A DNA stretch of 54,593 nucleotides from Candidatus Woesearchaeota archaeon (GTDB lineage: Archaea > Nanobdellota > Nanobdellia > Pacearchaeales > GW2011-AR1): positions 289,409-344,001 of the forward strand of contig CAZETU010000001.1 of assembly GCA_964514585.1 (NCBI GenBank), read 5' to 3'. Shown in pieces: positions 29,423-53,437 of the stretch. The notes under the pieces were generated by a model that ran no database searches, was not told where the DNA came from, and saw nothing but the letters and a program-made list of their open reading frames with translations. A program made the translations under genes and the position numbers. Numbering within the stretch: position 1 is the stretch's first letter; every line of letters starts with the position of its first letter.

Positions 29423-29505
29423 GATAATTTCAGGAGTCACATCTCGTGAAATTATCCCAAAAAATTCTGCAGAATTTTCCCAATGATTTTTTCACCAGAA
29501 AAAAT
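29423..29505. repeat. structured intergenic element, copy A (three inverted repeats)
   Basis: GATAATTTCA-ggagtcacatctcg-TGAAATTATC; 18-bp palindrome AAAATTCTGCAGAATTTT (29461-29478); TTTTTTC-acca-GAAAAAA. Confidence 0.8.
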
Positions 29506-29513
29506 ATTGATCC

Positions 29514-30116
29514 CTAAAACTCGTCTTCTTCCTTAGCCTTCTTAGCAGCCAATTCCTTAATCCTTTTAAGCGCCGCTCTAACATTCTTATTCAACTGAAT
29601 CATAGAATCATCCAACTGAGCCTTATTCTTAGTTCCAGTACAAACCAACTTTCCATTACTAAAAAGCAAAAAGGTCGCAGTAGGATCTTCCAACTTGTAA
29701 ACCAAACCAGGAAACTGCTCCGGCTCATACTCAGTATTCTCAAGCTCCAAAGCCAAAGTATTTAAATTCAAATCAAGATTAATCGCTCCACTCGCCACAA
29801 TATTCTGAACAGTAATCTTTGGTTTAATAGTAACATTTACCCCAATTTTTTTCAATTGCTTAATAACTTGCGTCACCACATCTCGAACCTGTGAAATCGA
29901 CTTTGTCCCAGTACAAACCAAATTTCCAGAACTAAAAACTAAAACCGCAGATTTGGGCTTCTTAACTCTCAAAACCAAACCAGGAAAAGTATCAGGATTA
30001 TACTCAGTATTAGGCTGAGTTCGAGCTAACTTAGTCAACGAAACATCCTTACCCAAGGACGTAGTTGCGACAATGTTCTGAACTTTCAAAGAAGTATCTT
30101 TTTTTGCTACTACCAC
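29514..30116 (-). CDS. tbp: TATA-box-binding protein
   Basis: two repeats 'VQNIVA...YNPDTFPGLV' and 'VQNIVA...YEPEQFPGLV', 'FSNGKLVCTG'. Confidence 0.97.
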   Translation of the reverse strand: MVVAKKDTSLKVQNIVATTSLGKDVSLTKLARTQPNTEYNPDTFPGLVLRVKKPKSAVLVFSSGNLVCTGTKSISQVRDVVTQVIKQLKKIGVNVTIKPKITVQNIVASGAINLDLNLNTLALELENTEYEPEQFPGLVYKLEDPTATFLLFSNGKLVCTGTKNKAQLDDSMIQLNKNVRAALKRIKELAAKKAKEEDEF

Positions 30117-30183
30117 TCAATACTTTAGAAAAAATCCTTTATAAAGCTTCCCTTTTACCGTCGGGATAAAAATAGCAAAGTTA

Positions 30184-31872
30184 TTATCCAGCTTCTTTCT
30201 CAACTTCCTCAATCGTCGCAATATCACTAGATCCTCTATCATCCCTAAACCGAGTAATCCGTGGGAACCTTAAAGCATAACCCGAAGAGTAAGTCGGTGA
30301 CTTCTGAATATTCTGATACTGAACCGTAACAACTATCTCAGGCCGAACCTTAACTCGCCTCCCATCAACCTCAATAACCAACTTCTCCAACATATCTGTC
30401 ATCTCCTCAAAACTCAAACCTTCATCTTTTAATTCCTTCAATCCTGTCGAAACCTTACCAATCTCCAATAATTCCCCATCTTCACCCCTACAAGAAACAT
30501 CAAAACTAGTCAACCACCCAGCTCTCTTCCCGGTCCCCCACTCAGCCCCAGTAATCACCAAATCAAAATCATTATCCTCCGGCTTCAACTTAACAGCGTG
30601 CCCAATGCGAGCCCCAGGTTTATACGGCGCCTCCAAATTCTTCCCCATTACACCCTCCTGATTGTCTGCCAAAGCCGCCTCATAAAATTTCTCAACCTCA
30701 CTCGCATCATCAGTAATAATCTGCTTCGAAAGCACAATCTTCCACAGCTCCTCACGAACAATCTTTTCAATTAAATGCCGACGCTCTCCAAACGGAGTAT
30801 CAATCAAACTCTCCCCATCATAATAAATAATATCAAAAACCGCGAGCTCAATTGGCAAACTCTTTTGCATCTCATCAATCCCATACTTCCGCCGAATCCT
30901 CTGACTTATCGCTTGAAAATCAGTATACTTTTTCGTCTCCGAATCAAATCCAACAGCCTCAGCATCCAAAATAAAACTCTTTCCCTCGACATGGCTATTA
31001 ACATACTCAACAATCTCAGGAAACTGCTCAGTCACCTCCTCAAGTCTCCTCGTAAAAATCTTAATCTTCCCATCCGTCTCCTTGTTTATCATAACCCGAA
31101 ACCCATCATACTTATACTCAAAAGCCGCCGGCCGACCAACAATACTAAACGCATCCTCAACATCCTTCGCCTTCGGAAACAACATCACCTTCACGGGCTT
31201 CCCAGGTTCCAATTTAATCTTCTCTAAAGAATCATCACGAGCTCTCTCAAAGACTTCGGCAAAATCAGTAGCCTTATCATAAGCTTCCTGAACAGCCTTC
31301 GCGCAAACCTTCTTATCCTCAATATTCTTAGGCTTAAAACAATTCTCAACAATCGCATCCCTTAAAATCCCAGAACCAACACCAATTTTCAAATCACCCA
31401 AAATAGTTCGAGCAATATACTTAGCCTCAATCGGAGTCGCTGAGTGCAACAAGTCAATAATCAAACCAATCTTAATATCAACCGTCCCCTTTCCCTCTAG
31501 CGTCGGAATTTTCGTCAAATTATCCATCACCTTCTCAACGCTAAGCTTCTTAGAGAACAAAGCAGTTTGCAACTTCTTTTTTCTCAAAATAAATTCCGCC
31601 GCCTTCCCCAAATCACCTAAATTCTTAAACTCTTCAACAACCTCATTGTCGCCAATTCCAGCCGCTTTAGAAATCGCCCGAATAACCAACTGATGTGAAA
31701 TCCCAAGTTCCCTATTATCATAATCAGCAAAAATCCGACCTTGCAACAAATAAATCAAACCCGGTTCCTCTCGAATCTTTTCCAAAAAATCTGCCAATAT
31801 AACAGTCTTCTCTAATCCCTTCGACGTCGATTCCAACGCATGATAAACCTCACATAATTCCGAATAATCCAT
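30184..31872 (-). CDS. lig: ATP-dependent DNA ligase
   Basis: 'EYKYDGFR' (KxDG), 'EGVMGK', 'LRFPR..R.RDD'. Confidence 0.96.
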   Translation of the reverse strand: MDYSELCEVYHALESTSKGLEKTVILADFLEKIREEPGLIYLLQGRIFADYDNRELGISHQLVIRAISKAAGIGDNEVVEEFKNLGDLGKAAEFILRKKKLQTALFSKKLSVEKVMDNLTKIPTLEGKGTVDIKIGLIIDLLHSATPIEAKYIARTILGDLKIGVGSGILRDAIVENCFKPKNIEDKKVCAKAVQEAYDKATDFAEVFERARDDSLEKIKLEPGKPVKVMLFPKAKDVEDAFSIVGRPAAFEYKYDGFRVMINKETDGKIKIFTRRLEEVTEQFPEIVEYVNSHVEGKSFILDAEAVGFDSETKKYTDFQAISQRIRRKYGIDEMQKSLPIELAVFDIIYYDGESLIDTPFGERRHLIEKIVREELWKIVLSKQIITDDASEVEKFYEAALADNQEGVMGKNLEAPYKPGARIGHAVKLKPEDNDFDLVITGAEWGTGKRAGWLTSFDVSCRGEDGELLEIGKVSTGLKELKDEGLSFEEMTDMLEKLVIEVDGRRVKVRPEIVVTVQYQNIQKSPTYSSGYALRFPRITRFRDDRGSSDIATIEEVEKEAG

Positions 31873-31960
31873 TAAATATCGAAGAGAAAACTCTTTTTAT
31901 AATTTCCCGCCCCAAGAAAACTTATAAACCCGAAGATCGTTAACACAACAAGGTGATACA

Positions 31961-34354
31961 ATGAATAGAAAAAAAGCTTTCGTTCTCCCATTCGATAAAT
32001 TACAAATTGAAGACGTGCCAATCGTCGGCGGTAAAAACGCATCCCTCGGCGAAATGTACCAAGACTTAAAACGAAAAGGTATCGCAGTCCCAAACGGTTT
32101 CGCAGTAACAGCCCTCTCCTATAGATACTTCATAGAAAAAGCAAACTTAAAAGATAAAATAAAATCAATCTTGTCAGACCTAAACACACACGATACAAGA
32201 AACCTAATGGAGCGCGGGAAAAAAGTCAGAGATGTAATTCTTAACGCCGAAGTGCCAGAAGAGATACAAAAAGAAATCATAAAAAGTTACAAAAAATTGT
32301 CCAAAGAATATGGCGACAAATACACCGACGTCGCAGTTAGAAGCTCAGCAACAGCAGAAGATTTGCCAGACGCTTCATTCGCAGGACAACAAGAAACTTA
32401 TCTTAATATTGTAGGAGAAAAAGCAATTCTTGAAGCCTGTAAAAAATGTTTCGCATCTCTTTTCACAAACAGAGCGATTTCATACAGAGAAGACAAAGGC
32501 TTCGACCACTTCAGCATAGCTCTTTCAATCGGAGTCCAAAAAATGGTACGAAGCGACTTATCATCAAGCGGAGTAATGTTTTCAATAGACACAGAATCAG
32601 GATTTAAAGACGCAGTTTTCATAACAGGAATTTACGGACTCGGAGAAAACATAGTCCAAGGTGCAGTAAACCCAGACGAATTCTATGTCCATAAACCAAC
32701 TTTGAAAAAAGGATACAGACCAATTATTTCAAAAAAAGTTGGAGAAAAAAAAATCAAAATGATATACAATCCAAAAGGACCAAATCCAGTAAAAAATATT
32801 CCAGTCTCAAAAGAAGATATGCAAAAATTCTGTATTACCGACGAAGAAATCTTAAAGTTAGCAAGATGGGCAGTAATCATCGAAGATCACTACAATAAAG
32901 CAATGGATATGGAATGGGCAAAAGATGGGAAGACCGGAAAATTATTCATTGTACAAGCAAGACCAGAAACAGTTCAAAGCCAAAAGAACGCAGGCGAGTT
33001 AGAAGAATATGTGCTAAAGAAAAAAGGACAAGTATTAGTCGTTGGGAGCAGTGTAGGTGCGAGAATAGGAGCAGGACCAGTAAGAGTAATCAAAGAAGTC
33101 TCAGGAATTCACGGCTTCAAAAAGGGAGACGTCCTAGTAACTGAAATGACAGATCCAGACTGGGAACCAATAATGAAAATCGCTTCAGCAATCGTAACAA
33201 ACAAAGGCGGCCGAACATGCCATGCTGCAATCATCTCAAGAGAACTTGGTATACCTTGTCTAGTCGGAACAAACGACGCAACAGAAAAACTAAAAACAGG
33301 CGACAAGGTAACAGTTAGTTGCGCAGATGGAGAAAAGGGGCGCGTGTACAAAGGAATTCTAAAGTATGTCGTAGAAAAACACAATTTAAAATCAATACCA
33401 AAAACACGAACAAAAATAATGATGAACATAGGAAACCCAGAGTCCGCATTCGAGCAAAGCTTCATTCCAAACGAAGGTGTCGGACTAGCAAGAGAAGAAT
33501 TCATAATAAACTCCCACATCAAAATTCATCCAAAAGCTCTAATTAATTTCGAAAAGATAACCAACCAGAAAGTAAAAAAACAAATATCAGAAATCACCGT
33601 TGGCTACAAAGACAAAAAACAATTCTTCGTGGACAAATTAGCAGAAGGAGTTGGAATGATTGGCGCAGCATTTTATCCAAAAGATGTAATTGTAAGAATG
33701 TCGGATTTCAAATCCAACGAATACAAAAACTTAATCGGTGGAGAAGAGTACGAACCAGAAGAGGGAAATCCAATGATAGGATGGCGAGGAGCGTCCCGTT
33801 ATTACAGCGAAGAATATAGGCAAGCTTTCGAACTGGAGTGTGAAGCAATCAAAAAAGCAAGAAACGAATTCGGACTAAAAAACATAAAACTAATGATTCC
33901 ATTTTGCCGAACAATCGAAGAAGGATTAAAAGTCCAAGCGATAATGGCAAGGAAAGGACTAAAGAGAGGAAAAGATGGATTAGAAATTTACGTAATGTGT
34001 GAAATCCCATCAAACGTAGTCTTAGCAGACGAGTTCTCAAAAATTTTCGACGGCTTTTCAATCGGTTCAAACGACTTAACTCAATTAACATTAGGTCTAG
34101 ATAGAGACTCAGAAATTGTTTCATCAATCTACGACGAAAGAAACCAAGCAGTCAAAACTTTAATTTCAACAGTAATAAAAACAGCAAGAAAAAACGGGAA
34201 GAAAATAGGAATATGCGGACAAGCACCGTCAGACTTTCCAGACTTCGCCCAATTCTTAGTTAGATGCGGAATAGATTCAATTTCTCTAAACCCAGACACA
34301 GTTATTAAAACAAGATTAAAGATTGCAGAACAAGAAAGAAAGTTAAGAAAATAA
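31961..34354 (+). CDS. ppsA: phosphoenolpyruvate synthase (pyruvate, water dikinase)
   Basis: 'VGGKNASLGE', 'RSSATAEDL', 'GGRTCHAAI', 'FSIGSNDLTQ', 'GICGQ'. Confidence 0.96.
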   Translation: MNRKKAFVLPFDKLQIEDVPIVGGKNASLGEMYQDLKRKGIAVPNGFAVTALSYRYFIEKANLKDKIKSILSDLNTHDTRNLMERGKKVRDVILNAEVPEEIQKEIIKSYKKLSKEYGDKYTDVAVRSSATAEDLPDASFAGQQETYLNIVGEKAILEACKKCFASLFTNRAISYREDKGFDHFSIALSIGVQKMVRSDLSSSGVMFSIDTESGFKDAVFITGIYGLGENIVQGAVNPDEFYVHKPTLKKGYRPIISKKVGEKKIKMIYNPKGPNPVKNIPVSKEDMQKFCITDEEILKLARWAVIIEDHYNKAMDMEWAKDGKTGKLFIVQARPETVQSQKNAGELEEYVLKKKGQVLVVGSSVGARIGAGPVRVIKEVSGIHGFKKGDVLVTEMTDPDWEPIMKIASAIVTNKGGRTCHAAIISRELGIPCLVGTNDATEKLKTGDKVTVSCADGEKGRVYKGILKYVVEKHNLKSIPKTRTKIMMNIGNPESAFEQSFIPNEGVGLAREEFIINSHIKIHPKALINFEKITNQKVKKQISEITVGYKDKKQFFVDKLAEGVGMIGAAFYPKDVIVRMSDFKSNEYKNLIGGEEYEPEEGNPMIGWRGASRYYSEEYRQAFELECEAIKKARNEFGLKNIKLMIPFCRTIEEGLKVQAIMARKGLKRGKDGLEIYVMCEIPSNVVLADEFSKIFDGFSIGSNDLTQLTLGLDRDSEIVSSIYDERNQAVKTLISTVIKTARKNGKKIGICGQAPSDFPDFAQFLVRCGIDSISLNPDTVIKTRLKIAEQERKLRK

Positions 34355-34356
34355 AA

Positions 34357-35145
34357 TTATATATTAGCAGCCTTACCCCAAACATTATCAAATTCTTTAG
34401 ATAAATTATTAGCCAAATCTTTATTCCAAATTGTTACAATAGAAGAAATTTTACTTTCGCTTAAAGGATTCAAATTCAAAAACAAAACAGTTTTTTTATC
34501 AACAATACCAAAATAAGAATTAATTTTATTGACAGTTTTCACTTTTATTTTATTCCCTGCAATTAATTTAGAATAATCCTTATCGAGTTTAAGTTGATCC
34601 AATGTATCTCGAGTCATAATTAATCTAAAATCAACAGAACCATCCAAAGCCTTTTCAATTTTATCTAAAATTTTAGAAGCAAACCTAACATTCACTTCAT
34701 GCAAAAAAATATCAACACTAATTTTTGGATCATAAAATAATAAATTATTTATTCTATCAATTTTGTCTTCGTCTAAATCAGTAGTCCAGAAAATCTTTTC
34801 ATTTTTATTTTGAAGTTTTTTTGAAGAAAACTCATTCATTAAATCAGAAACAGTTTCTTTAAGCGAAGTTATCTTCTTGGAAAACCAACTTTCTTGATTC
34901 TGAGTATATTTTTTTAACGCAATTTCTGGTTCAACTGCCCTGTATTTTTTCGGCTTAGTATTAAGTACCTCAACAAAACCCTTACCATTTAATGAATCCA
35001 AGGTAGAATATATTTTACCAAATGGAATGTTAGCCTTTGTGTAAATAGTTTTGGCATTTGTCTCATCGTATTTCAAAAGTTCCATATAAGCCCTAATTTC
35101 ATAATCAGTCAGCCCAATCTCAGATAACAATTCCTCTTTTTCCAT
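34357..35145 (-). CDS. TrmB family transcriptional regulator
   Basis: 'IGLTDYE..AY..LL', 'IPFGKIY.TL.SL..KG.V', 'PKKY.AV.P'. Confidence 0.88.
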   Translation of the reverse strand: MEKEELLSEIGLTDYEIRAYMELLKYDETNAKTIYTKANIPFGKIYSTLDSLNGKGFVEVLNTKPKKYRAVEPEIALKKYTQNQESWFSKKITSLKETVSDLMNEFSSKKLQNKNEKIFWTTDLDEDKIDRINNLLFYDPKISVDIFLHEVNVRFASKILDKIEKALDGSVDFRLIMTRDTLDQLKLDKDYSKLIAGNKIKVKTVNKINSYFGIVDKKTVLFLNLNPLSESKISSIVTIWNKDLANNLSKEFDNVWGKAANI

Positions 35146-35244
35146 ATTAAAGGTTACAAATTTACATTAATAAGTTTTGTTACAACCACAAAAAAGTTGT
35201 AGCCAGAGTATAATCCCTTTAAAGCAATTTTTTTTAATATTTTG

Positions 35245-37035
35245 ATGGGGAAAGTAAAAGTCTTACCAGTATACCCAAGCTCGCCTCCATCATTCTGGAG
35301 TTTCAACGAAGCTTTGAAAATAGAAGGGAAAAAAGCAGCAATGCCTCCAACGGGTTTAGTCACAGCAATGGCAATGTTCCCCGAAGAGGAATTTGAAATA
35401 ATGCCAGTACAAGATTTAAATATTGCACCCCTAGATGAAAGAGCATTGAAAGAATCGGATTTAGTTGCAACCTCTTCGATGGTAATCCATGAAAAATCTC
35501 ACAATAAAGTAATGGATTTAGCGCATAGATATGAAAAAAAAGTAGTTGCAGGAGGACCGTTCCCATCATCTTCTCCAGATAGAAATACAAGAGCAGATTA
35601 TATCGTAGCAGGAGAAGCTGAAATGACACTAGCACCATTCTTACACGATTTTCTAAAAGGAACTCCAAGGAGAATATACACAGAACAAGATGCAGCGAGA
35701 ACGACATTAACAAAACTTACAAGATCGGGAAAACCAGATTTGTCACAAACACCACTTCCGAGATGGGATTTAATAGACATGAAAGCCTATGACTCCGTAG
35801 GAATACAGTTCTCAAGAGGATGTCCTTGGGATTGCGAGTTTTGTAATATAACTTCGTTGTTCGGCAGAGAAGCAAGAACAAAAGGCGTTGACCAAATGAT
35901 CGCAGAATTCCAAAGTATTTATGACGCAGGCCACAGAGGGGGAGTTTTCTTACTAGACGATAACTTAATAGGTAATAGAAAAAACGTCAAACAATTACTC
36001 CCAGCCTTGGCCAAATGGCAAAAGGCAAGAGGCTATCCTTACGACATCGGAACAGAAGCAAGCATGAATTTAGCTTGGACAGAAAACGAAGGAATATTAA
36101 ATGGAATGAATGATGCAGGATTCGTTAGAACTTTCCTCGGAATAGAATCTGTTGATCCAGAAGTAATTAGTGGGATGAATAAGCAGCAGAATCTCAAAAT
36201 GTCACCAATAGAAGCTGTAAGAAGAATCCAAAACGCGGGCTTAGAAGTAACAGCAGGATTAATAATCGGCAACGACGGAGAAAAGCCGCAAGTCTTTGAT
36301 GATTTATACAATTTTGTTCAAGAGGCAGGGATAGTTCTCCCAATGGCAGGACTTCTAGGAGTAGTACCAGGAACAAAATTAGCAACAAGGCTAGAAAAGG
36401 AAGGAAGACTAAGAGAATATAATTGCGGATCAAACACACACTCATTCTCGTTAGACTTCGAACCAAAGTTAGCTCCAGGATTCACAGAAGGGCAACTCTT
36501 ATCAGGATACAAAGACCTCCTTCAAAGATTATTTTCTCCAAAAAGTTATTATGATAGATGCAGAGTTCTCCAAAAAGAACTAGGTCCAAGCCACCAAGAA
36601 AAACATTCCGCTCTTGAAAGTATGGCAATTCTAGGAAGGTTTGCAAAACATCAACTCACTGGAGGAGCTAATCTAGAAACTGCAAAATATTTAGCAGAGA
36701 CAGCCGCAAGATCCCCCTCACAACTTACAGTAGCAGTCACCCACACAGTAAAATACCAACACCTAAAAAGCATAACACAACAAAGCCTAGCAGCCGACAA
36801 TTATCATTCACAACTCGAATCAATGTACACGGATTTTGTAGCAGGAGCCGGAGAAGTCGCAACAAAATACGGAGAAAATATTAGAAGTGCCAGGAGAGCA
36901 TTGTTCAGAAAAGCAAGCAGGGTTCTAACAAAGGCAGAAAAACTCTATGAAAGAATTCATCCCTCTCTCAGGACAGAAGCCCATAAACATAAATTAAGAG
37001 AATTAAAAAAAAGTGTTTCGGAAAAAGCAGCATAA
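35245..37035 (+). CDS. B12-binding radical SAM protein (DUF4070-type)
   Basis: CxxxCxxC 'SRGCPWDCEFC'; N-terminal 'YP..P.SFWSF...PPTGL' cobalamin-binding region. Confidence 0.88.
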   Translation: MGKVKVLPVYPSSPPSFWSFNEALKIEGKKAAMPPTGLVTAMAMFPEEEFEIMPVQDLNIAPLDERALKESDLVATSSMVIHEKSHNKVMDLAHRYEKKVVAGGPFPSSSPDRNTRADYIVAGEAEMTLAPFLHDFLKGTPRRIYTEQDAARTTLTKLTRSGKPDLSQTPLPRWDLIDMKAYDSVGIQFSRGCPWDCEFCNITSLFGREARTKGVDQMIAEFQSIYDAGHRGGVFLLDDNLIGNRKNVKQLLPALAKWQKARGYPYDIGTEASMNLAWTENEGILNGMNDAGFVRTFLGIESVDPEVISGMNKQQNLKMSPIEAVRRIQNAGLEVTAGLIIGNDGEKPQVFDDLYNFVQEAGIVLPMAGLLGVVPGTKLATRLEKEGRLREYNCGSNTHSFSLDFEPKLAPGFTEGQLLSGYKDLLQRLFSPKSYYDRCRVLQKELGPSHQEKHSALESMAILGRFAKHQLTGGANLETAKYLAETAARSPSQLTVAVTHTVKYQHLKSITQQSLAADNYHSQLESMYTDFVAGAGEVATKYGENIRSARRALFRKASRVLTKAEKLYERIHPSLRTEAHKHKLRELKKSVSEKAA

Positions 37036-37161
37036 TTAACACTCTGCAAATTTACAAGCAAACTCACTAATATCAAGAGTAGCTACTCCAATCACAACAC
37101 CAACTACCAAAGCAATAACTCCAATCGCCAAAAGCCACAAAGCCAATTTTTTAAGGTTCAT
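37036..37161 (-). CDS. small single-TM protein (41 aa), not in the ORF track
   Basis: MNLKKLALWLLAIGVIALVVGVVIGVATLDISEFACKFAEC*; overlaps the upstream stop; G/T-rich codons like neighbouring minus-strand genes. Confidence 0.55.
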   Translation of the reverse strand: MNLKKLALWLLAIGVIALVVGVVIGVATLDISEFACKFAEC

Positions 37162-37540
37162 ATTTCTTAAAAGCCCGAACATTTAAATCAATATACCATT
37201 TCATCGCCACCACAAAATATTTCACAACAAAATAATTTCCAATCATCCAAAGTCCACCAAAACAAAATATCGCTACAGATAAGAAAGCAAGAGCCACAGG
37301 ATGAATCCCCCCGAGAGAAATATACTCGGCCATCCAACCACTCGAAATCAAAGGATAAATCAAACTAAGTATAAATCCAGCAAGTCCACCGACAATCATT
37401 CCAAATGCTCCAGCAATCAACCCAATTATAACACCAATTACCCCAATCAAAAAATGAATAACAAATACTACATTAAGCACAACCAAAGCTATCAAGATAA
37501 AAATATTATCAACATTACTAGGCTTCCCCCTTTTCACCAT
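37151..37540 (-). CDS. membrane protein resembling the DUF1700 C-terminal TM region
   Basis: three long hydrophobic segments, ending 'MKWYIDLNVRAFK'. Confidence 0.6.
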   Translation of the reverse strand: MVKRGKPSNVDNIFILIALVVLNVVFVIHFLIGVIGVIIGLIAGAFGMIVGGLAGFILSLIYPLISSGWMAEYISLGGIHPVALAFLSVAIFCFGGLWMIGNYFVVKYFVVAMKWYIDLNVRAFKKYEP

Positions 37541-37626
37541 ACTAAACAAAACATTCCAACCCTTAAATATCTTTCCAGTTAACACAGATAACCAACATTT
37601 ATAAAATAAAAATCATAAGACTAATT

Positions 37627-37950: not shown

Positions 37951-37953
37951 TTC

Positions 37954-38745: not shown

Positions 38746-38759
38746 AACATATACAACAA

Positions 38760-46439: not shown

Positions 46440-46443
46440 GCGG

Positions 46444-46566
46444 GCAATCTCTCAAGAACTATTTATGGCTTTAAGAAAGCGAAGTTTTCTTCTTTTGAAA
46501 ATCGAAGATTTTCAGTTTTCTATTCATGTTTTTATAGACTCTACTTTCTAAGCAATCTTTCAAGAA
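46444..46566 (-). repeat. duplicated minD 3' segment (46444-46458 vs 46552-46566) flanking two GAA-triloop hairpins
   Basis: GCAATCTCTCAAGAA vs GCAATCTTTCAAGAA; AAGAAAGC-GAA-GTTTTCTT and GAAAATC-GAA-GATTTTC lie between them. Confidence 0.7.
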
Positions 46567-47293
46567 AAGTCTTACTTATTTCAATTTTCTCACCACTAAC
46601 TTTTCGAGCAATCTCAACATACTTCTTCGCAACCTTGCTTCGTGGATGAGTGTGAACAACGGCATCCCTCAAATTCAAAGCTTCTTTAACAGCCTTATCT
46701 TCAGGGACAACTCCAATTATCTGAGCCTCAAGCATAGACTTAATCGAAGACAAAGGCATCTCGTATTTCGCATTACTATGTCGAGTCACAACAACCCCAT
46801 TAATCTCCTTTCCCATTTGTCGAGCAACCTTAACAGCCTTAAGCGCATCAGTAACGGCAGGCATTTCAGGATTAGTCACAATAATAATTTCATCAGCAGC
46901 TTCAATAACAGCAATAACCTCGTCACCAAACCCAGCAGCAGAATCAACAATTACATAATCACAAAGTTTAGCCAACTTCTTCATAATCTCAGGTAACTTC
47001 TTCGTATTAAATTTAGTCAACTCCTTAACTGAAAGCGACGACGGTATAATCTTAGTTCCAGAAGAATGTTCGTAAATAGCGTCCTCAATATCAGCTTTCC
47101 CCTTCAGAACATGATTTAAAGTCACAGGAACAATCGGCGCACCAAGCTGCAAACCAACATTAGGAGTATTCAAATTAGCATCGACAATAATAACTTCCTT
47201 ATCCAACTTATTCAGCGACGTTCCTAAATTAATAGCAGTAGTGGTCTTACCAACACCGCCTTTCCCTGAATTTATTACTATTATTCTTGCCAT
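46541..47293 (-). CDS. minD: MinD/ParA family ATPase
   Basis: deviant Walker A 'SGKGGVGKTT', 'DANL..PN', 'VDSAAG', 'VTNPEMPAVTDA'; in-frame upstream ATG at 47332. Confidence 0.92.
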   Translation of the reverse strand: MARIIVINSGKGGVGKTTTAINLGTSLNKLDKEVIIVDANLNTPNVGLQLGAPIVPVTLNHVLKGKADIEDAIYEHSSGTKIIPSSLSVKELTKFNTKKLPEIMKKLAKLCDYVIVDSAAGFGDEVIAVIEAADEIIIVTNPEMPAVTDALKAVKVARQMGKEINGVVVTRHSNAKYEMPLSSIKSMLEAQIIGVVPEDKAVKEALNLRDAVVHTHPRSKVAKKYVEIARKVSGEKIEISKTFLERLLRK

Positions 47294-47370
47294 AATTTCA
47301 TCTTCATAATAATGGTACTCTTCGAGCGCCATAATTTTTCGTCATAATAATGGTACTCTTCGGACGCCAT
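47294..47370 (-). repeat. two tandem 38/39-bp units, each starting ATGGC, directly upstream of the minD ATG
   Basis: ATGGCGTCCGAAGAGTACCATTATTATGACGAAAAATT and ATGGCGCTCGAAGAGTACCATTATTATGAAGATGAAATT. Confidence 0.9.
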
Positions 47371-47459
47371 CTTAAATCAACGTGTAAATATCAGAAAAAC
47401 TCGGTTTATAAGCTTTATCAGTCGAAAGGTTAAAACGCCTCGACCTTTAAAAAAGAATA

Positions 47460-47903
47460 TTACTTTGCAAGAATTTGTTTAACTTCAGCGATAAATTTTT
47501 CGACAATATCTGAATACTCCCCAAGTTTTTCCATATTAATTTCAGTAGTTTTAGTAGCTTCAATAATTTTCAAATTCACATTTTTTCTAAATTCACCCTC
47601 TCGAGTCTTCTTTAAATCGGGCACTCTCTTGAAAAAAATATAAAGTGGAATCACAGCCTGGATAACATCTCCTTTCCTAAAGTATTTCTTCATAAATTCA
47701 ATTCTCTGTTTGGGATTCGTAGGCATAGCAGGAATTTTCCCCCCCTCAACTCTATGCTCAAGAACAGCGTCGAAACTAATCTCAATCAAACTTTTCCACC
47801 GAGCCAATAAATTCAAAATAACGTCACAAGTCTTGGTATACTTTAAACTGACGTATAAAAGATGGTCGGCACTCGTCTTTTCCTTTATAATTTCCTCAAT
47901 CAT
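47460..47903 (-). CDS. conserved archaeal hypothetical protein (helical, possibly HEPN-like)
   Basis: 147 aa 'ADHLLYVSLKYTKT.DVI.N'; fold assignment is a guess. Confidence 0.6.
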   Translation of the reverse strand: MIEEIIKEKTSADHLLYVSLKYTKTCDVILNLLARWKSLIEISFDAVLEHRVEGGKIPAMPTNPKQRIEFMKKYFRKGDVIQAVIPLYIFFKRVPDLKKTREGEFRKNVNLKIIEATKTTEINMEKLGEYSDIVEKFIAEVKQILAK

Positions 47904-47985
47904 ATATATTATGCCTCTAAGCGTAAAAAAACAAAAGACAGCAACCTTTTTATACTTGTCGAAAAATCAAGCATCAATATTCTCA

Positions 47986-48402
47986 CTATTCTTTAGGAAA
48001 TTTACCAGCAGCACACTCAACAGACCTCAAAAAATCACCAATTCTCTCAGCTTTCAAAAAACGATACTTACCTTCAATCAATAAAATAATTTTATCCCCT
48101 TTCGCATACTCAATTGGCGAAGTCTTCTGCGCCCTTTCAACCTCCAAAATCTTAAATAAATTCTCCTTCGTCAAATCATCCAAATACTTAGGCGCAATAT
48201 CATCCATAAAAACCTTTAGGCTCCTTTCCCCCACATTCTCATAATCAAAAAACGCCCGAATCAAATCCCCAGCAGCCCGCGCCGTCTCATTAATCACCCC
48301 AATCAAAAACCGCTTATCCGCAAACTTCCCATAACCATCAAACATCCGCCGCGCCACACTCAAATGATACTTCGCATTTATCAAACTCTCCCTCCAATCC
48401 AT
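47986..48402 (-). CDS. hypothetical protein, possible distant paralog of 47460-47903
   Basis: 138 aa 'AKYHLSVARRM'; host-like codon skew. Confidence 0.6.
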   Translation of the reverse strand: MDWRESLINAKYHLSVARRMFDGYGKFADKRFLIGVINETARAAGDLIRAFFDYENVGERSLKVFMDDIAPKYLDDLTKENLFKILEVERAQKTSPIEYAKGDKIILLIEGKYRFLKAERIGDFLRSVECAAGKFPKE

Positions 48403-48549
48403 AAAACAAAACCCCAAGAACTCTTTATATTAATTATTGCGATTAACAATTTTAATTTATAGCTGAAAAGTTCGCAGTATAAAAAATTTAGACGCGTGTT
48501 TTTACACATAAGAAATTTTTTATCAAGAAATTTTCGCTAGAAATTGAAA

Positions 48550-48876
48550 TTATTTCAATTCCATTATCGCCTCAGCAATATCCCCATCACTTTTCTCCAA
48601 AGCAGCCTTGACTTCGTCCTCGCTTTTCCCAGTTTTCTCAATAACCATAACAACATCCTCTTCACTAAAAACCTCAGTACTTTCTTCAACAGCTTCCCCA
48701 GTAACCTGATAACTCTCCTGACCTTGCATCATAATCTTAATCACCGACGGATCATCAATAACCAAATTCCCATCCGCCATCTCAAAAATAACTTTTCTAA
48801 CAGGCAACGGAGTCTGAGAAATCCCCATCTTTTTCATCATCCCCTGCATCTTCGCAGGATTCATTCCACCAAGCAT
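48550..48876 (-). CDS. nac: nascent polypeptide-associated complex protein
   Basis: 'MNP.KMQGMMKKMGI', 'MMQGQESYQV.G', UBA-like 'EDV..V.EKTG.S..E...AL....GDIAEAI'. Confidence 0.93.
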   Translation of the reverse strand: MLGGMNPAKMQGMMKKMGISQTPLPVRKVIFEMADGNLVIDDPSVIKIMMQGQESYQVTGEAVEESTEVFSEEDVVMVIEKTGKSEDEVKAALEKSDGDIAEAIMELK

Positions 48877-48877
48877 C

Positions 48878-49033
48878 TTAAGTAAACCATATCCGAAGAC
48901 CAACAACAAGCGCAATCACCGCGATAATCATCCCGACAACAGCCCCAGGTCCGAACTTCAATTTAGAATTATACTCTTCCTTATACCTCATCAACCCGCC
49001 AAATCCAGCAGGCATTGCCATATCATCTGCCAT
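48878..49033 (-). CDS. secG: preprotein translocase subunit Sec61beta, not in the ORF track
   Basis: MADDMAMPAGFGGLMRYKEEYNSKLKFGPGAVVGMIIAVIALVVGLRIWFT*; 'P..GGL.RY.E...K..P..V' + TM signature. Confidence 0.88.
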   Translation of the reverse strand: MADDMAMPAGFGGLMRYKEEYNSKLKFGPGAVVGMIIAVIALVVGLRIWFT

Positions 49034-49044
49034 ACATAAACAAA

Positions 49045-49665
49045 CTAATTTCCCTTTTTAATTCTTTCCAAAGCCAAATCTTCCCTATTCCTCGACCGCC
49101 CAACAGTCTGCCCAAACCGAACCAAAATCCAATTAATAGAATTCCAATATCTCCGCGGAAACAATTTATTCAAATCCTTCTCAACTTTATTTGGATCTAA
49201 ATTCTTAGTCCAACCCATCTTCCGAGAAATCCGACCAACATGGGTATCAACCCCAATAGCAGCAGCCTTTTTCACCTCAACCAAATAAACATTCGCAGTC
49301 TTCCGCCCAACCCCAGGAAACTTCATCAACTCATCAACGCTCTCATTCAAACCACCTTCAGCAATCATCCCAGCCGTCGCCTTAATATGCCGAGCCTTAG
49401 TCTTATAATAATTAATAGAACCAATATCTTTCTCAATCGAAGAAAGCCGAGCCCTTCCCAATTTCTCAACCTTATCATATTTTTTAAAAAGTTTCTCACA
49501 AACAGCAACGGTTTTTGTATCTCGAGTCTGAGCCGATAACATTATAGCAATCAAAGTTTGCCAATTCTCATTCCAACCCTCGGCAGCCAACCGCGGACTT
49601 TCCCCAGTCTGTTCGACCAACTTCTCAATCTCTTTCAATTGCTCCACTGCAAGTTTAGAATCCAT
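49045..49665 (-). CDS. nth: endonuclease III family HhH-GPD glycosylase lacking the 4Fe-4S motif
   Basis: 'LIAIMLSAQTRD', HhH 'FPGVGRKTANV', 'VDTHVGR'; no C-terminal Cys cluster. Confidence 0.88.
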   Translation of the reverse strand: MDSKLAVEQLKEIEKLVEQTGESPRLAAEGWNENWQTLIAIMLSAQTRDTKTVAVCEKLFKKYDKVEKLGRARLSSIEKDIGSINYYKTKARHIKATAGMIAEGGLNESVDELMKFPGVGRKTANVYLVEVKKAAAIGVDTHVGRISRKMGWTKNLDPNKVEKDLNKLFPRRYWNSINWILVRFGQTVGRSRNREDLALERIKKGN

Positions 49666-49813
49666 AAACTATCAAGCACACTTTCCTTAAAAAACATTTA
49701 TATAACATCTATAGAGACATAAAAACACTACGTCCACGGCATCTATATCTACTCGCAAAATATAAATCAGATTAGAGCATAACCTCACGTTTCAAAAACA
49801 AATACCACATTTC

Positions 49814-50269
49814 TTAAATTATCCCCGCATGTTCAAAGACTTCACAGACCCCATCAGAATAAATAGTCCACCCAAAGCTCCCAGAAGCAAGACGTTCCCT
49901 CCTCCTAATTTCACATGTCGTAGGAATAGTTTCTCCTCCAATAAAATTATTCTCCCTCAAAATTTCCTCGGCTGCCTCTTGCATTTCTTCATCACTCATC
50001 CGAGCCCAACTACATCCCATAAAATCACGATATGCATTTCCAATTCCAGAAAGCGCAACAACAATCCCAGATTCCGAATCTTGACTAATACCAGTAATCA
50101 TTAACTGCGAATCAACAAGAGCCTTATATCCTCTCAACCTCCTCTTGACCCCTGCAACATACCCTCTATTAACTTCCTCAAAAGCCAAATGACTCAAAAC
50201 GTCATCCAATCCTACCTCCAATTCAAACAAAGGATTTCCATCAACAAAAAATCCCAACACTGATTCCAA
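49814..50269 (-). CDS. hypothetical protein
   Basis: 151-aa ORF with TTG start and a TATA-like box upstream; no motif recognised. Confidence 0.5.
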   Translation of the reverse strand: MESVLGFFVDGNPLFELEVGLDDVLSHLAFEEVNRGYVAGVKRRLRGYKALVDSQLMITGISQDSESGIVVALSGIGNAYRDFMGCSWARMSDEEMQEAAEEILRENNFIGGETIPTTCEIRRRERLASGSFGWTIYSDGVCEVFEHAGII

Positions 50270-50330
50270 CGGCCCACTCGTAAAAATAAAAAATCATTCG
50301 AATATATAAAAATTGTTACACCAAACTATC

Positions 50331-51614
50331 CTACTTCGCCCCTATCTTCTTCAACCCACCCATATAAGGCTGCAAAACTTTCGAAACATTAATCGACCCA
50401 TCCTTATTCTGATTATTCTCCATCAAAGCAATCAAGGCCCTTGGCGAAGCAACAACTGTATTATTCAAAGTATGCGCAAAATAATTCCCACTTCCACCAT
50501 TAATTTTAATTCCAAGTCGCCGAGCCTGAGCATCCTCTAAATTAGAACAACTCCCAACTTCAAAATACTTCTTCTGCCTCGGACTCCACGCTTCAACATC
50601 CGCCGATTTCGCTTTCAAATCCGCCAAATCTCCACTGCAACATTCCAACTTCCTAACAGGAACATCAAGGCTCTTAAAAAATTCAACAGTCCAATTCAAC
50701 ATCTTGTCATACCACTCATAACTATTCTCAGGTTCACAAACGACAACCATCTCTTGCTTCTCAAATTGATGCACACGATAAAGACCACGCTCCTCAGCCC
50801 CATGCGCCCCCTTCTCTTTCCTAAAACAAGGCGAATAACTAGTCAAAGCCTGCGGAATCTCACCCTTCTTCATCGTCTTATCCTTAAACATCCCAATCAT
50901 CGAATGTTCACTCGTCCCAATCATATACAAATCCTCACCTTCAATCTTATACATCATCGCGTCCATCTCCTCAAAGCTCATAACGCCAGTCACAACATCA
51001 CTCCTAATCATAAACGGCGGCACACAATACTCAAAGCCCTTACCAATCATAAAATCCCTAGCATAGGTCAAAACCGCCGCATGAAGTCGAGCAATATCTC
51101 CCCTCAAAAAATAAAACCCCTGCCCCGAAGTCTTCCTCGAACTCTCTATATCTAACCCCCCAAGTTTTTCAGCCAACTCAGTATGATTAAAAATCTCATA
51201 ATCAGGGACTTTAGGTTCGCCAATCTTCTCCAACTCAACATTCTCAGTATCATCCTTACCCAACGGCACAGTCTCATGAATAATCTGCGGAATCCTCATC
51301 ATTATCTCTCGAATTTTCTCACCCAATTTATCTTCCTTAGCCTCAATCTTTGCAATCTTCTCAGGAATTTTCTTAGCCTCCGCAATCAAACCCTTTGCAT
51401 CCACTTTCTTCCCCGACTTCATCACCTGATTAATCTGCTCACTAATCTTATTCCGCTCACTCCTCAAGTCATCCGCCCTCTTTCTCTCTCTTCGCCACTT
51501 CAAATCCAAATCAATCACTTCATCAACAAGCTTCAACTTCTCATCCTGTCCTTTCTTCCGAATATTCTCTCTAACCAAATCAGGATTCTCCCGAACCAAC
51601 TTAATATCTATCAT
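50331..51614 (-). CDS. serS: serine--tRNA ligase
   Basis: 'MIDIKLVRENP', coiled-coil arm, 'GTSEH', 'CFRKEKG', 'VHQFEKQE', 'HTLNNT'. Confidence 0.97.
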   Translation of the reverse strand: MIDIKLVRENPDLVRENIRKKGQDEKLKLVDEVIDLDLKWRRERKRADDLRSERNKISEQINQVMKSGKKVDAKGLIAEAKKIPEKIAKIEAKEDKLGEKIREIMMRIPQIIHETVPLGKDDTENVELEKIGEPKVPDYEIFNHTELAEKLGGLDIESSRKTSGQGFYFLRGDIARLHAAVLTYARDFMIGKGFEYCVPPFMIRSDVVTGVMSFEEMDAMMYKIEGEDLYMIGTSEHSMIGMFKDKTMKKGEIPQALTSYSPCFRKEKGAHGAEERGLYRVHQFEKQEMVVVCEPENSYEWYDKMLNWTVEFFKSLDVPVRKLECCSGDLADLKAKSADVEAWSPRQKKYFEVGSCSNLEDAQARRLGIKINGGSGNYFAHTLNNTVVASPRALIALMENNQNKDGSINVSKVLQPYMGGLKKIGAK

Positions 51615-51644
51615 ATAAAAAATAAACTCAGAATATATTTAAAT

Positions 51645-52094
51645 CTACCTGATACGTCGAGCCAAAACCCGACCCAAATTTTCAAGTCCTCGATTTCTTA
51701 TATATCTAATTTTTTCACAACCAACTCCAATTTCTTTGGTGATAACATTTATTTCTTTACCCTGAAAATATATTTTTCTTAGAACGTCAGCATATCTTTG
51801 CCCATCAGGATTTTCAGAACCATAACCTTCAGCACTATTTCCTACAGAATAATGAATCTGTTCCATTTCACCCAAGGCTGCTTCTATCTCTTCAATTAAT
51901 TCAGCTCTCTGTATCCTATCTTCATATGGGAATTTCCGAAAAAGACCTACGGTTTTCATTCTATCTTCAAATTCTCTTTGCGCCTTAGATGTTCCAGGAT
52001 GATCCCTCATTCTCTCCCTAATCTTAACATAGTGCGACATGCTACGACATCCCTTACCTCGCGCCCAATTATTCATATCCATTATTACTCCCAA
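51645..52094 (-). CDS. hypothetical protein with sigma-70 region 4-like HTH
   Basis: 'VLRKIYFQGKEINVITKEIGVGCEKIRYIRNRGLENL' fits the region-4 pattern. Confidence 0.55.
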   Translation of the reverse strand: MGVIMDMNNWARGKGCRSMSHYVKIRERMRDHPGTSKAQREFEDRMKTVGLFRKFPYEDRIQRAELIEEIEAALGEMEQIHYSVGNSAEGYGSENPDGQRYADVLRKIYFQGKEINVITKEIGVGCEKIRYIRNRGLENLGRVLARRIR

Positions 52095-52158
52095 GAATTA
52101 TTACTTTTAAATTCTCCCTTTCATAAAACTTATTAACATAACTCTCTAGCCCATACCC

Positions 52159-52863
52159 ATGGACGACAAAGAGCTCATAAAAAAAGTAAGAAATTCTCTA
52201 ATTGCAAAAAAATCCAAATCAGAAATACTACGAGGTTTCCAAAAAAGAGGCTACAAATTAGAATACGCTGAAGCACTCCTAAACAAAGCCAAAAAGCCAA
52301 AAAAAGTCGTCACGGTCCTAACTTTATTAATAATCGTTTCAGCCCTACTATTCGCAACATTCTACATCTCATTTTTAACAGGCCAAAAAACAACCTTAAC
52401 AAATCCGCTTGCAGGCTTCACAATCACAGGAAATACTATAGCAGATTCAAATCCCCAGATTCCTCAAGGTACCCAAATCCTAAATCAAAACTCAACCACA
52501 GAAAAATCCCTAGAGCAAATCGAAATAACTCCAGAATTCATATCCTTCCTACTCCAAGAAATTGGCGCAAGCCAACTCCATTCAAATCTCCTAGAAAAAC
52601 CAATAATAAACGTCAAAATAGAAGATCAAGTATTTCATTCAATTATCGGAAACGAAATAAAAACAACAGAAGGTCTAAGTGAAGATGCAGACATCCAATT
52701 CAACACAAATAAACCAGATTTAGTCGAGGCTATAATATCAGACAATCCAGAAATAATCTTCAAAGAATCAATCACAAGCGGCAACACTCAAATCGAACTC
52801 AAAACAAGCGAAACAGAACTCTTCTCAAAAGGATACCTCGGACTTTACGATTCCCTAAGATAA
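52159..52863 (+). CDS. membrane-anchored protein with SCP2-like C-terminal domain
   Basis: one TM helix; 'EDADIQF', 'IFKESITSGNTQIE', 'ELFSKGYL.LY'. Confidence 0.6.
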   Translation: MDDKELIKKVRNSLIAKKSKSEILRGFQKRGYKLEYAEALLNKAKKPKKVVTVLTLLIIVSALLFATFYISFLTGQKTTLTNPLAGFTITGNTIADSNPQIPQGTQILNQNSTTEKSLEQIEITPEFISFLLQEIGASQLHSNLLEKPIINVKIEDQVFHSIIGNEIKTTEGLSEDADIQFNTNKPDLVEAIISDNPEIIFKESITSGNTQIELKTSETELFSKGYLGLYDSLR

Positions 52864-52992
52864 CCAATAATTTATTTTGTCTGCTACCACTCTAAAATTT
52901 TCTGTCACCAACGCCCAATTCTTGTACCTACTACCCATGGACGAATTTTCAGAGAAAGACTTAAAAGCAAAATATCATTCTAATATATACAT

Positions 52993-53010
52993 TAGAACAT
53001 ATATGTTCTA
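52993..53010. promoter_or_regulatory. perfect 18-bp palindrome, candidate autoregulatory operator
   Basis: TAGAACATATATGTTCTA, ending 10 nt before the wHTH ATG. Confidence 0.6.
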
Positions 53011-53020
53011 CCTTAAAACC

Positions 53021-53287
53021 ATGGGAGACAGCTTTGATTTATTTTTCAGAAGAAAGCCAGCGATGATGCTCATAGCCCTAAAGAAGGTTTCTCGAGCAAA
53101 ATACGGATCACAACTAGCAAAAGAAGTTGACTGCACATATTCTCACGCTGTAAAAATTCTACAAAACCTTGAAGAGCTAGGGCTAGTAAGCTTCGAAAAA
53201 AAAGGCAGAATCAAAATAATCAAGTTAACCAAAAGGGGAACTGATGTTGCAGAACATATAGAAGCAATCCGAAAAATTGTTGGGTAA
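53021..53287 (+). CDS. MarR-like winged-helix transcriptional regulator
   Basis: 'YGSQLAKEVDCTYSHAVKILQNLEELGLV.FEKKGR.K..KLTKRG'; start MGDSF chosen. Confidence 0.85.
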   Translation: MGDSFDLFFRRKPAMMLIALKKVSRAKYGSQLAKEVDCTYSHAVKILQNLEELGLVSFEKKGRIKIIKLTKRGTDVAEHIEAIRKIVG

Positions 53288-53437
53288 TTCTCAAGTAATC
53301 CTAAAGATTATATATTAGTCATAATTTTATTCCGGGAGTCGCGTCTCGCGGAATAAAACAAAAACAATTCGGCAGAATCACCTTGCCCACAAGGCATTAG
53401 TCACATAGAAGCTATCCGAAAAATTGTTGGATAATTC
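53255..53437 (+). repeat. duplicated regulator 3' end (53255-53290 vs 53402-53437) flanking structured element copy B
   Basis: 33/36 identity; TTTTATTCCG-ggagtcgcgtctcg-CGGAATAAAA hairpin at 53325-53358. Confidence 0.9.

Follow-up and report, generated by a model that had tools for sequence, protein, structure and literature searches.

In the 54,593-nt stretch of a Candidatus Woesearchaeota genome analyzed here (the window), two hairpins with almost the same center and different arms lie just past the stop codons of two minus-strand genes, tbp and a UPF0104 gene, and the question they raise is what kind of element they belong to. A preliminary description had taken them for the two copies of a new element, either a single-stranded DNA hairpin recognized by an HUH enzyme or a recombinase, or a 3'-UTR RNA motif. 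Both hairpins were indeed found (Table 1): their 14-nt cores match at 12 positions and differ at two, and their 10-bp arms, which differ at five of ten positions, pair perfectly in both copies. The surroundings were also as reported, with ATATAT upstream (3 nt from the hairpin in copy A and ~13 nt in copy B), a box AATTC(T/G)GCAGAAT 6-7 nt downstream of each hairpin, and then a hairpin with an acca or ccca tetraloop. The window contains the core pattern twice, where 0.23 occurrences are expected, and none of 100 shuffles contained it twice or more. Fold z-scores were -5.25 (+ strand) and -2.90 (- strand) for copy A, and -4.93 and -4.31, respectively, for copy B. A small ORF across the hairpin was considered and rejected, as the frames hold stops and show no conservation.

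Table 1. Features of copies A and B and of the adjoining genes (positions in the window)
Feature	Position	Strand	Remarks
Copy A left-end segment	29397..29422	+	A/T-rich, CAAA..TATAT motif
Copy A head hairpin h1, GAGTC type	29423..29456	+	core 29433-29446
Copy A hairpin h2	29461..29478	+	7-bp stem, TGCA loop, PstI-like palindrome
Copy A hairpin h3	29481..29509	+	ACCA loop, bulged G
tbp	29514-30116	-	stop faces copy A
Copy B left direct repeat	53255..53290	+	3' end of wHTH (MarR-like) gene 52877-53287
Copy B inserted module, 111 nt	53291..53401	+	bounded by two direct repeats
Copy B head hairpin h1, GAGTC type	53325..53358	+	core 53335-53348; architecture as copy A
Copy B degenerate h2	53366..53378	+	12/13 identical to the box of copy A
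Copy B h3-like hairpin	53381..53394	+	5-bp stem, CCCA loop
Copy B right direct repeat	53402..53437	+	relic wHTH 3' end, abuts UPF0104 stop codon 53438-53440
UPF0104 gene	53438-54436	-	stop faces copy B

In the head of copy A, the 10-bp stem is followed by a 1x1 G.G mismatch and then by a GAG/CTC mini-stem, which is capped by the 6-nt loop TCACAT. Its left-end motif resembles an archaeal BRE/TATA on the + strand and is a T6 run on the - strand. Its h3 has an outer stem of 4 bp, a bulged G and an 8-bp T6/A6 stem capped by an ACCA loop, and it ends 4 nt from the tbp stop codon (29514-29516). The direct repeats that bound copy B are identical at 33 of 36 nt, with all three differences silent, and the left one comprises the true final 10 codons of the wHTH gene, its stop and 3 nt.

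The two hairpins are probably the head (h1) of a non-coding, genus-restricted repeat of ~110 nt composed of three hairpins, here called the hairpin train. As to its nature, the explanation that we favor, with a probability of about 60%, is a non-autonomous insertional repeat which is tolerated by the host or used as a bidirectional oligo-T terminator.

Extent and structure of the repeat family

The repeat comprises a left-end motif followed by a head hairpin, which is variable, a hairpin with a TGCA loop and a hairpin with an ACCA loop and a bulged G; the three hairpins differ from one another, and their order and orientation are constant. The head with the GAGTC core is one of at least four interchangeable types. 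The h2 of copy A is nearly identical to those at C1:126289 and C1:202943, and at C1:126289 the near identity covers h2-h3, the heads of the two copies being unrelated. Moreover, a hybrid head at C5:184-227 combines the right arm of copy A with the left arm of another head type. The count of two copies proved too low: besides this hybrid, the genome under study (G000; other G codes are relatives compared) has five GAGTC-core hairpins, and these represent one head variant within a family of which 56 distinct copies from six genomes were aligned.

Model R2 matched 12 times in G000, 38 times in G030 and once or twice in each of four congeners, with no match in 42 other congeners (48 compared) or in 140 genomes from 83 other genera of the order. 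The model misses the h3-like hairpin of copy B, which has diverged too far, and the copy count is 12-15 in G000 and 38 in G030. The repeat has a mosaic structure and a dispersed distribution, which is patchy among congeners, with expansion in single genomes; its sequence variants are species-specific, and its hosts are a few tiny genomes of the Pacearchaeota type (DPANN). Perfect hairpins of at least 8 bp are only mildly enriched genome-wide (342 against ~220 in shuffles), which indicates that the hairpin train is a specific family and not a genome-wide style.

The search for further homologs that had been proposed for the hairpin gave, in addition to the copies in this genome, GAGTC-type copies in G061, G003, G011, G015 and a metagenome contig (L063). 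Scanning genome, metagenome and viral collections for the exact pattern gave nothing beyond the same organisms, the new copy in L063 and chance matches without a hairpin, and at E <= 0.1 the GAGTC hairpin was present in only three of 48 other congeners. A motif related to that at the left end of copy A, AAGTCAAA..TATAT, lies ~25 nt ahead of the core in most GAGTC-type copies. Across the 11 GAGTC heads, 89% of the cells are paired and 30 cells changed on both sides, a value equaled in none of 500 shuffles. The compensatory change first noticed between two copies thus holds in a larger alignment, with arm covariation far above shuffled and slid controls, but it is not by itself a proof of selection on RNA, as had been suggested for structure in general. 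The GAGTC head, in which the core is conserved and the arms covary freely, would be a clean bait for a hairpin-reading protein.

Covariation is strong in all three hairpins. The ACCA loop is present in 46 of the 56 copies and the bulged G in 54. Core stems are 97% Watson-Crick, with nine G.T and nine A.C departures; as these are few and equal, DNA hairpins, use of both strands or templated correction of the arms are no worse a fit than an RNA motif on one strand. The outermost pairs of h3, where about half of the copies have AAC/GTT and the others GAC/GTC, show 14 A.C departures against one G.T, an excess confined to these pairs.

Probable insertion and position at gene ends

The spacer between tbp and the FKBP gene has 47 nt in G001, where it is "empty", and 170 nt in G000; in G003 and G061 it holds unrelated fillers. 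Direct repeats flank copy B (36 bp) and copies in G030 (38, 46, 55 and 93 bp). These target duplications are kept at only five of ~60 copies, and among the G000 copies none besides copy B has one. Moreover, no two copies share full-length identity, so recent transposition in G000 is not directly shown. The ends of the duplication-bounded inserts (copy B and the G030 loci L084 and L104) are not inverted repeats of each other. Presence and absence across the genus singled out no candidate mover among Y1 transposase, reverse transcriptase and tyrosine recombinases, the latter being equally present in congeners without the repeat.

In 36 of the 56 copies the stop of a convergent ORF lies between -2 and +11 nt from the h3 end, and the orientation of the repeat relative to the abutting gene is fixed. 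Runs of at least five T are found on both strands in 47-48 of the 56 modules, and in 42 of them a run starts 4-6 nt into the module in the gene sense. Archaeal terminators are U5-U7 tracts which do not need a hairpin and which lie shortly after the stop codon, at mapped transcript 3' ends (PMC7515710). As candidate terminators, the modules would resemble them in the tract just behind the stop, in this case from the T6/A6 arms of h3 and on both strands; however, the known terminators are hairpin-independent and are not dispersed repeats with conserved loops. A scan for bacterial sigma-70 promoters and terminators was set aside, the host being an archaeon.

Not all copies are at gene ends. The GAGTC copies C5:41202 and C5:44048 lie between divergent genes, the copy of G003 is inside a hydrogenase operon, and some copies are in front of a tRNA. 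The idea of a new 3'-UTR motif is therefore only partly borne out: the element is structured, repeated, non-coding and found at gene 3' ends, but with two of the five GAGTC copies between divergent genes it is not strictly a 3'-UTR motif. These two copies and that of the hydrogenase operon are also awkward for a strong terminator. The junction of contigs C1 and C5 is within a tRNA carrying a module insert.

According to the explanation favored here, the repeat would spread at the DNA level, through insertion or copy-paste with duplication of 36-93 bp of the target, and its copies would be homogenized within a genome by gene conversion or re-insertion. The unpaired GAGTCRCRTCTC core, the R.G mismatch, the ACCA loop and the bulged G may be the marks by which the folded single strand is recognized, its reader being a putative structure-specific protein, with the arms free to vary as long as they remain paired. 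The T-rich/A-rich palindromes would put oligo-T on both strands ~10 nt behind the stop codon, as a putative bidirectional archaeal terminator or insulator, or at least as something harmless, and this may be why copies persist in very compact genomes. Against this explanation count the negative outcome for candidate movers, the lack of full-length identity between copies and the small number of copies with duplications; the copies at four orthologous genes in two species could equally reflect old vertical inheritance under host selection. We also advance, tentatively, the possibility of a new archaeal non-autonomous mobile element with exchangeable heads, whose folded strands would be read via their loops by a machinery unrelated to known transposases and inserted precisely behind stops with long variable duplications, and on which the hosts, streamlined symbionts, would have come to rely as bidirectional terminators or insulators.

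Alternative explanations

The three hairpins might instead fold in a transcript, as a cis-acting 3'-UTR motif or a small stand-alone RNA gene whose conserved loops would bind a protein or nuclease setting mRNA 3' ends, stability or processing, with spread and duplications being secondary. Covariation in all three hairpins, fixed orientation to the abutting gene, the copies at orthologous genes and the BRE/TATA-like motif upstream of h1 on the + strand are consistent with an RNA. Moreover, the gene-sense strand folds slightly better (mean -29.0 against -27.2 kcal/mol, Wilcoxon p = 0.002) and is richer in G.U pairs, and the A.C departures of outer h3, on the ACCA strand, are G.U in the gene sense. 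However, these two strand tests conflict with the purine-purine mismatches of the heads, which are on the strand opposite to the gene sense, and in the core stems wobble is nearly absent and without bias. Read in the gene sense, the T6 tract comes ahead of all the hairpins and should terminate most transcripts upstream of them, and the predicted + strand start site falls inside h1. Considering also the absence of the family from 42 of 48 congeners and all other sampled genera, its bursts of copy number (38 against 0), its mosaic structure and the copies located between divergent genes or before a tRNA, an RNA role appears rather doubtful.

A REP/REPIN- or PATE-type element, with single-stranded DNA hairpins moved by a Y1 (HUH) transposase of the IS200/IS605/RAYT group, is unlikely, although imperfect hairpins with conserved mismatches and loops are like TnpA/RAYT substrates, the extragenic gene-end position and species-specific variants agree with it, and the two copy-richest genomes, G000 and G030, both encode Y1 transposases. 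In the resident IS200 elements (two G000 copies aligned and folded, one G030 copy read), the end hairpins are unrelated in sequence to h1-h3, the transposase has an in-frame TGA in both G000 copies, and the repeat flanks no Y1 gene. Among 49 congeners, Y1 does not track the repeat: G063 has 10 Y1 matches and no modules, and G003, G005, G015 and G061 have modules and no Y1. Furthermore, IS200/IS605 elements insert without target-site duplication, as opposed to the duplications of 36-93 bp seen here. The HUH link of the preliminary description was thus not sustained, and of the readings it offered the REP-like one fits most closely. Quasipalindrome correction, that is, intrastrand template switching in replication, would make the compensatory arms a functionless mutational by-product in decaying copies. 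The Watson-Crick content of the core stems and their balanced departures agree with this, and the hybrid head is the kind of intermediate that correction would resolve; however, the R.G and T.T mismatches, the bulged G and the loops are unpaired and conserved in nearly all copies, indicating that pairing is not simply maximized, and since correction accounts for the arms but not for the conserved cores, position or spread, we consider it improbable. Very little credence can be given to a double-stranded operator or cruciform for a dimeric transcription factor at promoters, such as the MarR-like wHTH protein encoded beside copy B. A near-perfect 34-bp palindrome with a partly conserved TTCC...GGAA, its overlap with a TATA-like box and two copies in divergent promoter regions would suit an operator, but the arms co-change on both sides, which half-site recognition does not require, the conserved center is asymmetric, most copies are behind stop codons rather than at promoters, and 46 of 49 congeners have the wHTH gene, as opposed to the three of 48 others in which the hairpin was found.

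Relation to known elements and significance

Only tRNAs passed the Rfam search of the window, and the best sub-threshold matches at both copies (E ~1-5) were far below gathering scores, in agreement with the novelty claimed earlier. BLAST against phages and plasmids gave nothing meaningful, viral contigs gave no match, and no description of the repeat was found in the literature searched; a paper on the Rep-Arvir origin hairpin was unrelated to it. A restriction-modification reading of GAGTC/GTCTC was rejected, as these words are not markedly avoided (observed/expected 0.83-1.19), and so was that of origin-recognition boxes (TTCCA..TGGAA), because the copies are scattered across three contigs.

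By its features, the hairpin train resembles bacterial REP/BIME or MITE repeats. The REP, BIME and REPIN elements of Proteobacteria are moved by RAYTs (PMC2817692, PMC3337134), and REPs exceed 100 copies per genome and alternate in orientation within BIMEs (PMC2817692). As in the train, they are short extragenic imperfect palindromes in composite units, species-specific and frequently behind gene ends. However, the train has three different hairpins in a single direction and 12-38 copies, flanks no RAYT gene (in G000 and G030, the Y1 genes are part of IS200-like units), shows long target duplications at some copies and resides in a DPANN archaeon. MITE-like intergenic repeats, such as Correia/NEMIS in Neisseria, RUP/BOX/SPRITE in pneumococci and the enterobacterial RU/ERIC, are non-coding, structured, dispersed and patchy sequences of ~100-150 nt at gene boundaries, with possible terminator or promoter activity. 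The train shares their size, non-coding structure, dispersal, patchiness and placement. Classical MITEs have terminal inverted repeats and short target duplications of fixed length, whereas the inserts of the train lack such repeats, their duplications range from 36 to 93 bp and no cognate transposase was found.

In PATE and IS200/IS605 elements, recognition is through imperfect subterminal hairpins with conserved unpaired bases, and action is strand-specific. The train would share these traits; it differs from them in the unrelated end hairpins of the resident IS200 and in its duplications at five copies. Integron attC sites have RYYYAAC/GTTRRRY core sites, with an integron integrase and attI nearby. 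They are folded single-strand recombination sites set by structure and a few extrahelical bases, as the train would be, and the outer h3 stem CAAC...GTTG faintly recalls their AAC/GTT. However, half of the train copies have GAC/GTC, there is no integron integrase context or cassette ORF, and tyrosine recombinases also occur in congeners lacking the train.

DPANN archaea have tiny gene-dense genomes in which nearly every intergenic base is thought to be under pressure. Because of this compactness, a structured repeat that reaches dozens of copies in one species but is absent from sister species is informative, and so are its placement at stop codons and the duplication of up to 93 bp of target. 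The repeat suggests that archaea have an insertion mechanism to which no enzyme has yet been assigned. To our knowledge nothing is known about termination in this lineage, and the modules would supply a natural collection of candidate end-signals for transcription, or of candidate insulators separating convergent genes. Modules also break assemblies, and the pseudo-duplicated gene ends confuse annotation.

Hairpins of the window and the GAGTC-type heads

The preliminary description reported two structured hairpins in the window, and both were found where it had placed them. Copies A and B are built alike, with a stem of 10 bp, one 1x1 mismatch (G.G), a mini-stem of GAG with CTC, and a loop of 6 nt; their 14-nt cores differ by two purines, and their arms, different at 5 of 10 positions, pair perfectly in both. 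Downstream of this head hairpin (h1) each copy has the box AATTC(T/G)GCAGAAT and then a tetraloop hairpin. Two occurrences of the core pattern were counted in the window, where 0.23 are expected, and the fold z-scores of the modules of copies A and B against shuffles were -5.25 and -4.93, respectively, on the + strand.

Location of the features discussed (window positions unless a genome and contig are named; G000 is the genome of the window, on contig C1, and G030 a congener)
Feature	Position	Strand	Remark
FKBP-type isomerase gene	28918-29343	minus	neighbour of copy A
13-nt repeat at FKBP gene start	29330-29342 and 29383-29395		
Copy A, hairpin	29423-29456		
tbp	29514-30116	minus	neighbour of copy A
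MarR-like wHTH gene	52877-53287	plus	neighbour of copy B
Copy B, hairpin	53325-53358		
UPF0104	53438-54436	minus	neighbour of copy B
C1/C5 junction	54547-54593 and G000:C5:1-283		
GAGTC-type heads on C5	G000:C5:41202 and C5:44048		
Hybrid head	G000:C5:184-227		
h2-h3 pairs almost identical to that of copy A	G000:C1:126289 and C1:202943		
IS200-like Y1 transposases	G000:C5:31193-31552 and C5:59638-59997		
Tandem tyrosine-recombinase genes	G000:C16:196-2663		
Xer-like recombinase gene	G000:C1:106834-107310 and G030:C10:78901-79371		orthologous site
Second small-insert family	~9858-9992 (G000:C1:299266); G000:C1:115698; C1:257774; C5:26		repeat offset 115 at the window site
Recurring 55-72-nt unit	1-130 (G000:C1:289196-289480)		offsets 58, 155 and 213 nt

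The hairpin had been described as a two-copy element, which did not hold: it has five copies in this genome and more in congeners, and it proved to be one head of a larger repeat. A pattern search of the G000 assembly (1.04 Mb, 18 contigs) and a covariance model of the GAGTC head (R1) both gave exactly five copies, two in the window, two on C5 between divergent membrane-protein genes and one on C6 behind the gene for ribosomal protein S10. By R1 and exact-pattern scans, copies were also found in three congeners: G061, where the hairpin precedes a tRNA by 12 nt; G003, where it separates two genes for hydrogenase subunits within an operon; and G011. A metagenome contig (L063) carries one behind an SMC/Rad50-like gene, and further finds were one copy in G015 and a hybrid head on C5. 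The hairpin was absent from the viral contigs scanned, and 150 other genomes of the order gave a single weak match. Among 11 GAGTC heads the core is nearly invariant and the arms differ freely: 89% of cells are paired, with two-sided change in 8 pairs (30 cells), a covariation that was matched by 0 of 500 shuffles and was far lower in every slid control.

Contigs C1 and C5 share a 19-nt overlap within tRNA-Lys, so that five of the six GAGTC-type heads lie within ~70 kb, which suggests that heads of this type spread locally. At this junction, in tRNA-Lys(CUU), a second copy of the tRNA's last 25 nt lies 113 nt downstream, and the two copies enclose another kind of hairpin insert, of the CAATTCGC...GCAAATTG type. 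Next comes the hairpin train with the hybrid head; the assembly break was probably caused by the repeat.

A train of three hairpins at gene ends

In a census of tetraloop hairpins, the pair behind copy A, one hairpin with a TGCA loop (h2) and one with an ACCA loop and a bulged G (h3), was met again with 25-nt spacing at seven more sites on C1 and, in the opposite orientation, on C6. The h2-h3 stretch of copy A is almost identical by alignment to those of two other C1 sites, and the heads there are unlike. Some other heads are visibly related to that of copy A; one shares with it the outer stem GATAA/TTATC and has an inner stem GAGA..TCTC. There are at least four head types, the GAGTC type among them, and the hybrid head combines two. 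In copy B, h2 is degenerate and h3 has been re-stemmed. Two different perfect hairpins, some of which still resemble h2 or h3, are present in the G061, G011 and L063 copies and in both C5 copies.

The hairpins h2 and h3 also covary strongly (96.7% paired; two-sided change in 8 pairs; 0 of 500 shuffles). A covariance model of both (R2) matched 12 times in G000, 38 times in G030 and once or twice each in G003, G005, G015 and G061, with no match in 42 other congeners or in 140 genomes from 83 other genera of the order. Of 56 distinct copies that were aligned, 46 keep the ACCA loop and 54 the bulged G, and four extra pairs of the h3 stem show a compensatory switch between CAAC/GTTG and TGAC/GTCA.

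To the right of every canonical G000 copy is an opposite-strand gene; from the start of h2 to its stop codon is 50-53 nt, which puts the stop directly after h3. A convergent stop falls -2 to +11 nt from the h3 end in 36 of the 56 copies, and several of the others abut RNA genes or a duplicated target. No copy was found inside an ORF, and the orientation of the repeat tracks the abutting gene, not the contig. Exceptions are the two GAGTC-type copies on C5 and those of G061 and G003, which lie between divergent genes, in front of a tRNA and within an operon, respectively. At one orthologous site in G000 and G030, an Xer-like tyrosine recombinase gene lies ~1 kb or less from a hairpin train, which is probably shared synteny and not a functional link.

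The initial observation was sound and its interpretation half right: a structured repeat located at gene ends, of the REP/BIME/MITE kind, stands, and the novelty of a two-copy element does not. The repeat is distinctive as a train of three unlike hairpins running in one direction, whose heads are interchangeable, and also by its placement at stop codons, its long and variable target duplications and its confinement to a few genomes of one DPANN genus. In the literature, we found no paper on such repeats in DPANN.

Signs of insertion and candidate movers

The tbp-FKBP spacer that holds copy A measures 170 nt in G000 versus 47 nt in G001, where it contains the FKBP promoter only; in G003 and G061 it has other fillers (170-190 nt). 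Behind the wHTH gene, relatives have tRNA-Lys and not the repeat. Copy B is a 111-nt module flanked by a 36-nt direct repeat made of the last ten codons and the stop of the wHTH gene, with three mismatches, all silent, between the two repeats; the right one touches the UPF0104 stop. In G030 the repeats that flank four copies measure 38, 46, 55 and 93 bp and have at most one mismatch; they span the end of a neighbouring gene and leave both genes intact. The insert ends have no inverted repeats, and the length of the flanking repeats is variable. Three G000 copies and one G003 copy lie behind orthologues (68-84% protein identity) of copy-bearing G030 genes, with head and loop variants own to each genome. 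Either such genes are favoured targets that were hit repeatedly, or the insertions are old and each genome has homogenised its own copies.

The mechanism of mobility is inferred. Derivation from IS200/IS605 was not supported as far as it could be tested. Contig C5 carries two IS200-like elements (666 bp, 99.85% identical), each with an HUH (Y1) transposase gene bearing the same in-frame TGA, and the end hairpins of both, as of one G030 copy, bear no relation to the hairpins of the repeat. Of 49 congeners, 12 have a Y1 transposase and 6 the repeat, and only G000 and G030 have both; G063 has ten Y1 matches and no repeat. A reverse transcriptase is absent from G030, and tyrosine recombinases are present both with and without the repeat, so that neither was retained as the mover. 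No Rfam family and no phage or plasmid record matched the repeat, and there is no avoidance of the words GAGTC and GTCTC in the genome. Three tandem tyrosine-recombinase genes on a 3.5-kb contig (C16) recall the bacterial 'recombinase in trio' elements.

Small inserts of a second family, whose CAATTCGC...GCAAATTGTGAGTAG-like core is unlike the hairpin train, are flanked by duplicated 3' ends of a gene or tRNA (20-77 nt). At loci L035, L037, L039 and L041, 3' of the wHTH gene in congeners, several relatives have degenerate partial tRNA copies and inserts beside tRNA-Lys, so that small insertions have a hot spot here. A repeated unit was also seen at the start of the window.

Strand preference and transcription signals

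The core stems are 97% Watson-Crick, and their departures (9 G.T and 9 A.C) show no strand bias and hardly any wobble. Bias exists only in the outermost h3 pairs, where the ACCA strand has 14 A.C versus one G.T, which read as G.U on the sense strand of the adjoining gene. Folding of whole modules slightly prefers the gene-sense strand, which is also richer in G+U, and the purine-purine mismatches of the heads (G.G and A.G; GUA/GGA in another head type) are on the ACCA strand. As these signals conflict, no single RNA strand is picked out, a pattern compatible with hairpins that are important in both strands or at the DNA level.

In 47-48 of the 56 modules each strand has a run of at least five T, supplied by the T-rich 5' and A-rich 3' arms of h3, and the gene-sense run begins 4-6 nt into the module in 42. 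Archaeal termination occurs at U5-U7 tracts and does not require a hairpin (PMC7515710). Thus the module would halt RNA polymerase from either side at a gene end, and we infer that it may serve as a terminator or insulator. The A/T-rich left arm, read on the + strand, and the preceding motif resemble BRE/TATA, but promoter geometry would put the start site within the hairpin, at the conserved G that follows TCTC; a promoter role is unproven.

At the start of the FKBP gene, 13 nt that include its minus-strand start codon recur 53 nt upstream, and the TATA-like box of the gene lies within the 40 nt between the two copies. It looks as if a promoter-bearing segment had been inserted or duplicated at the 5' end of this gene.
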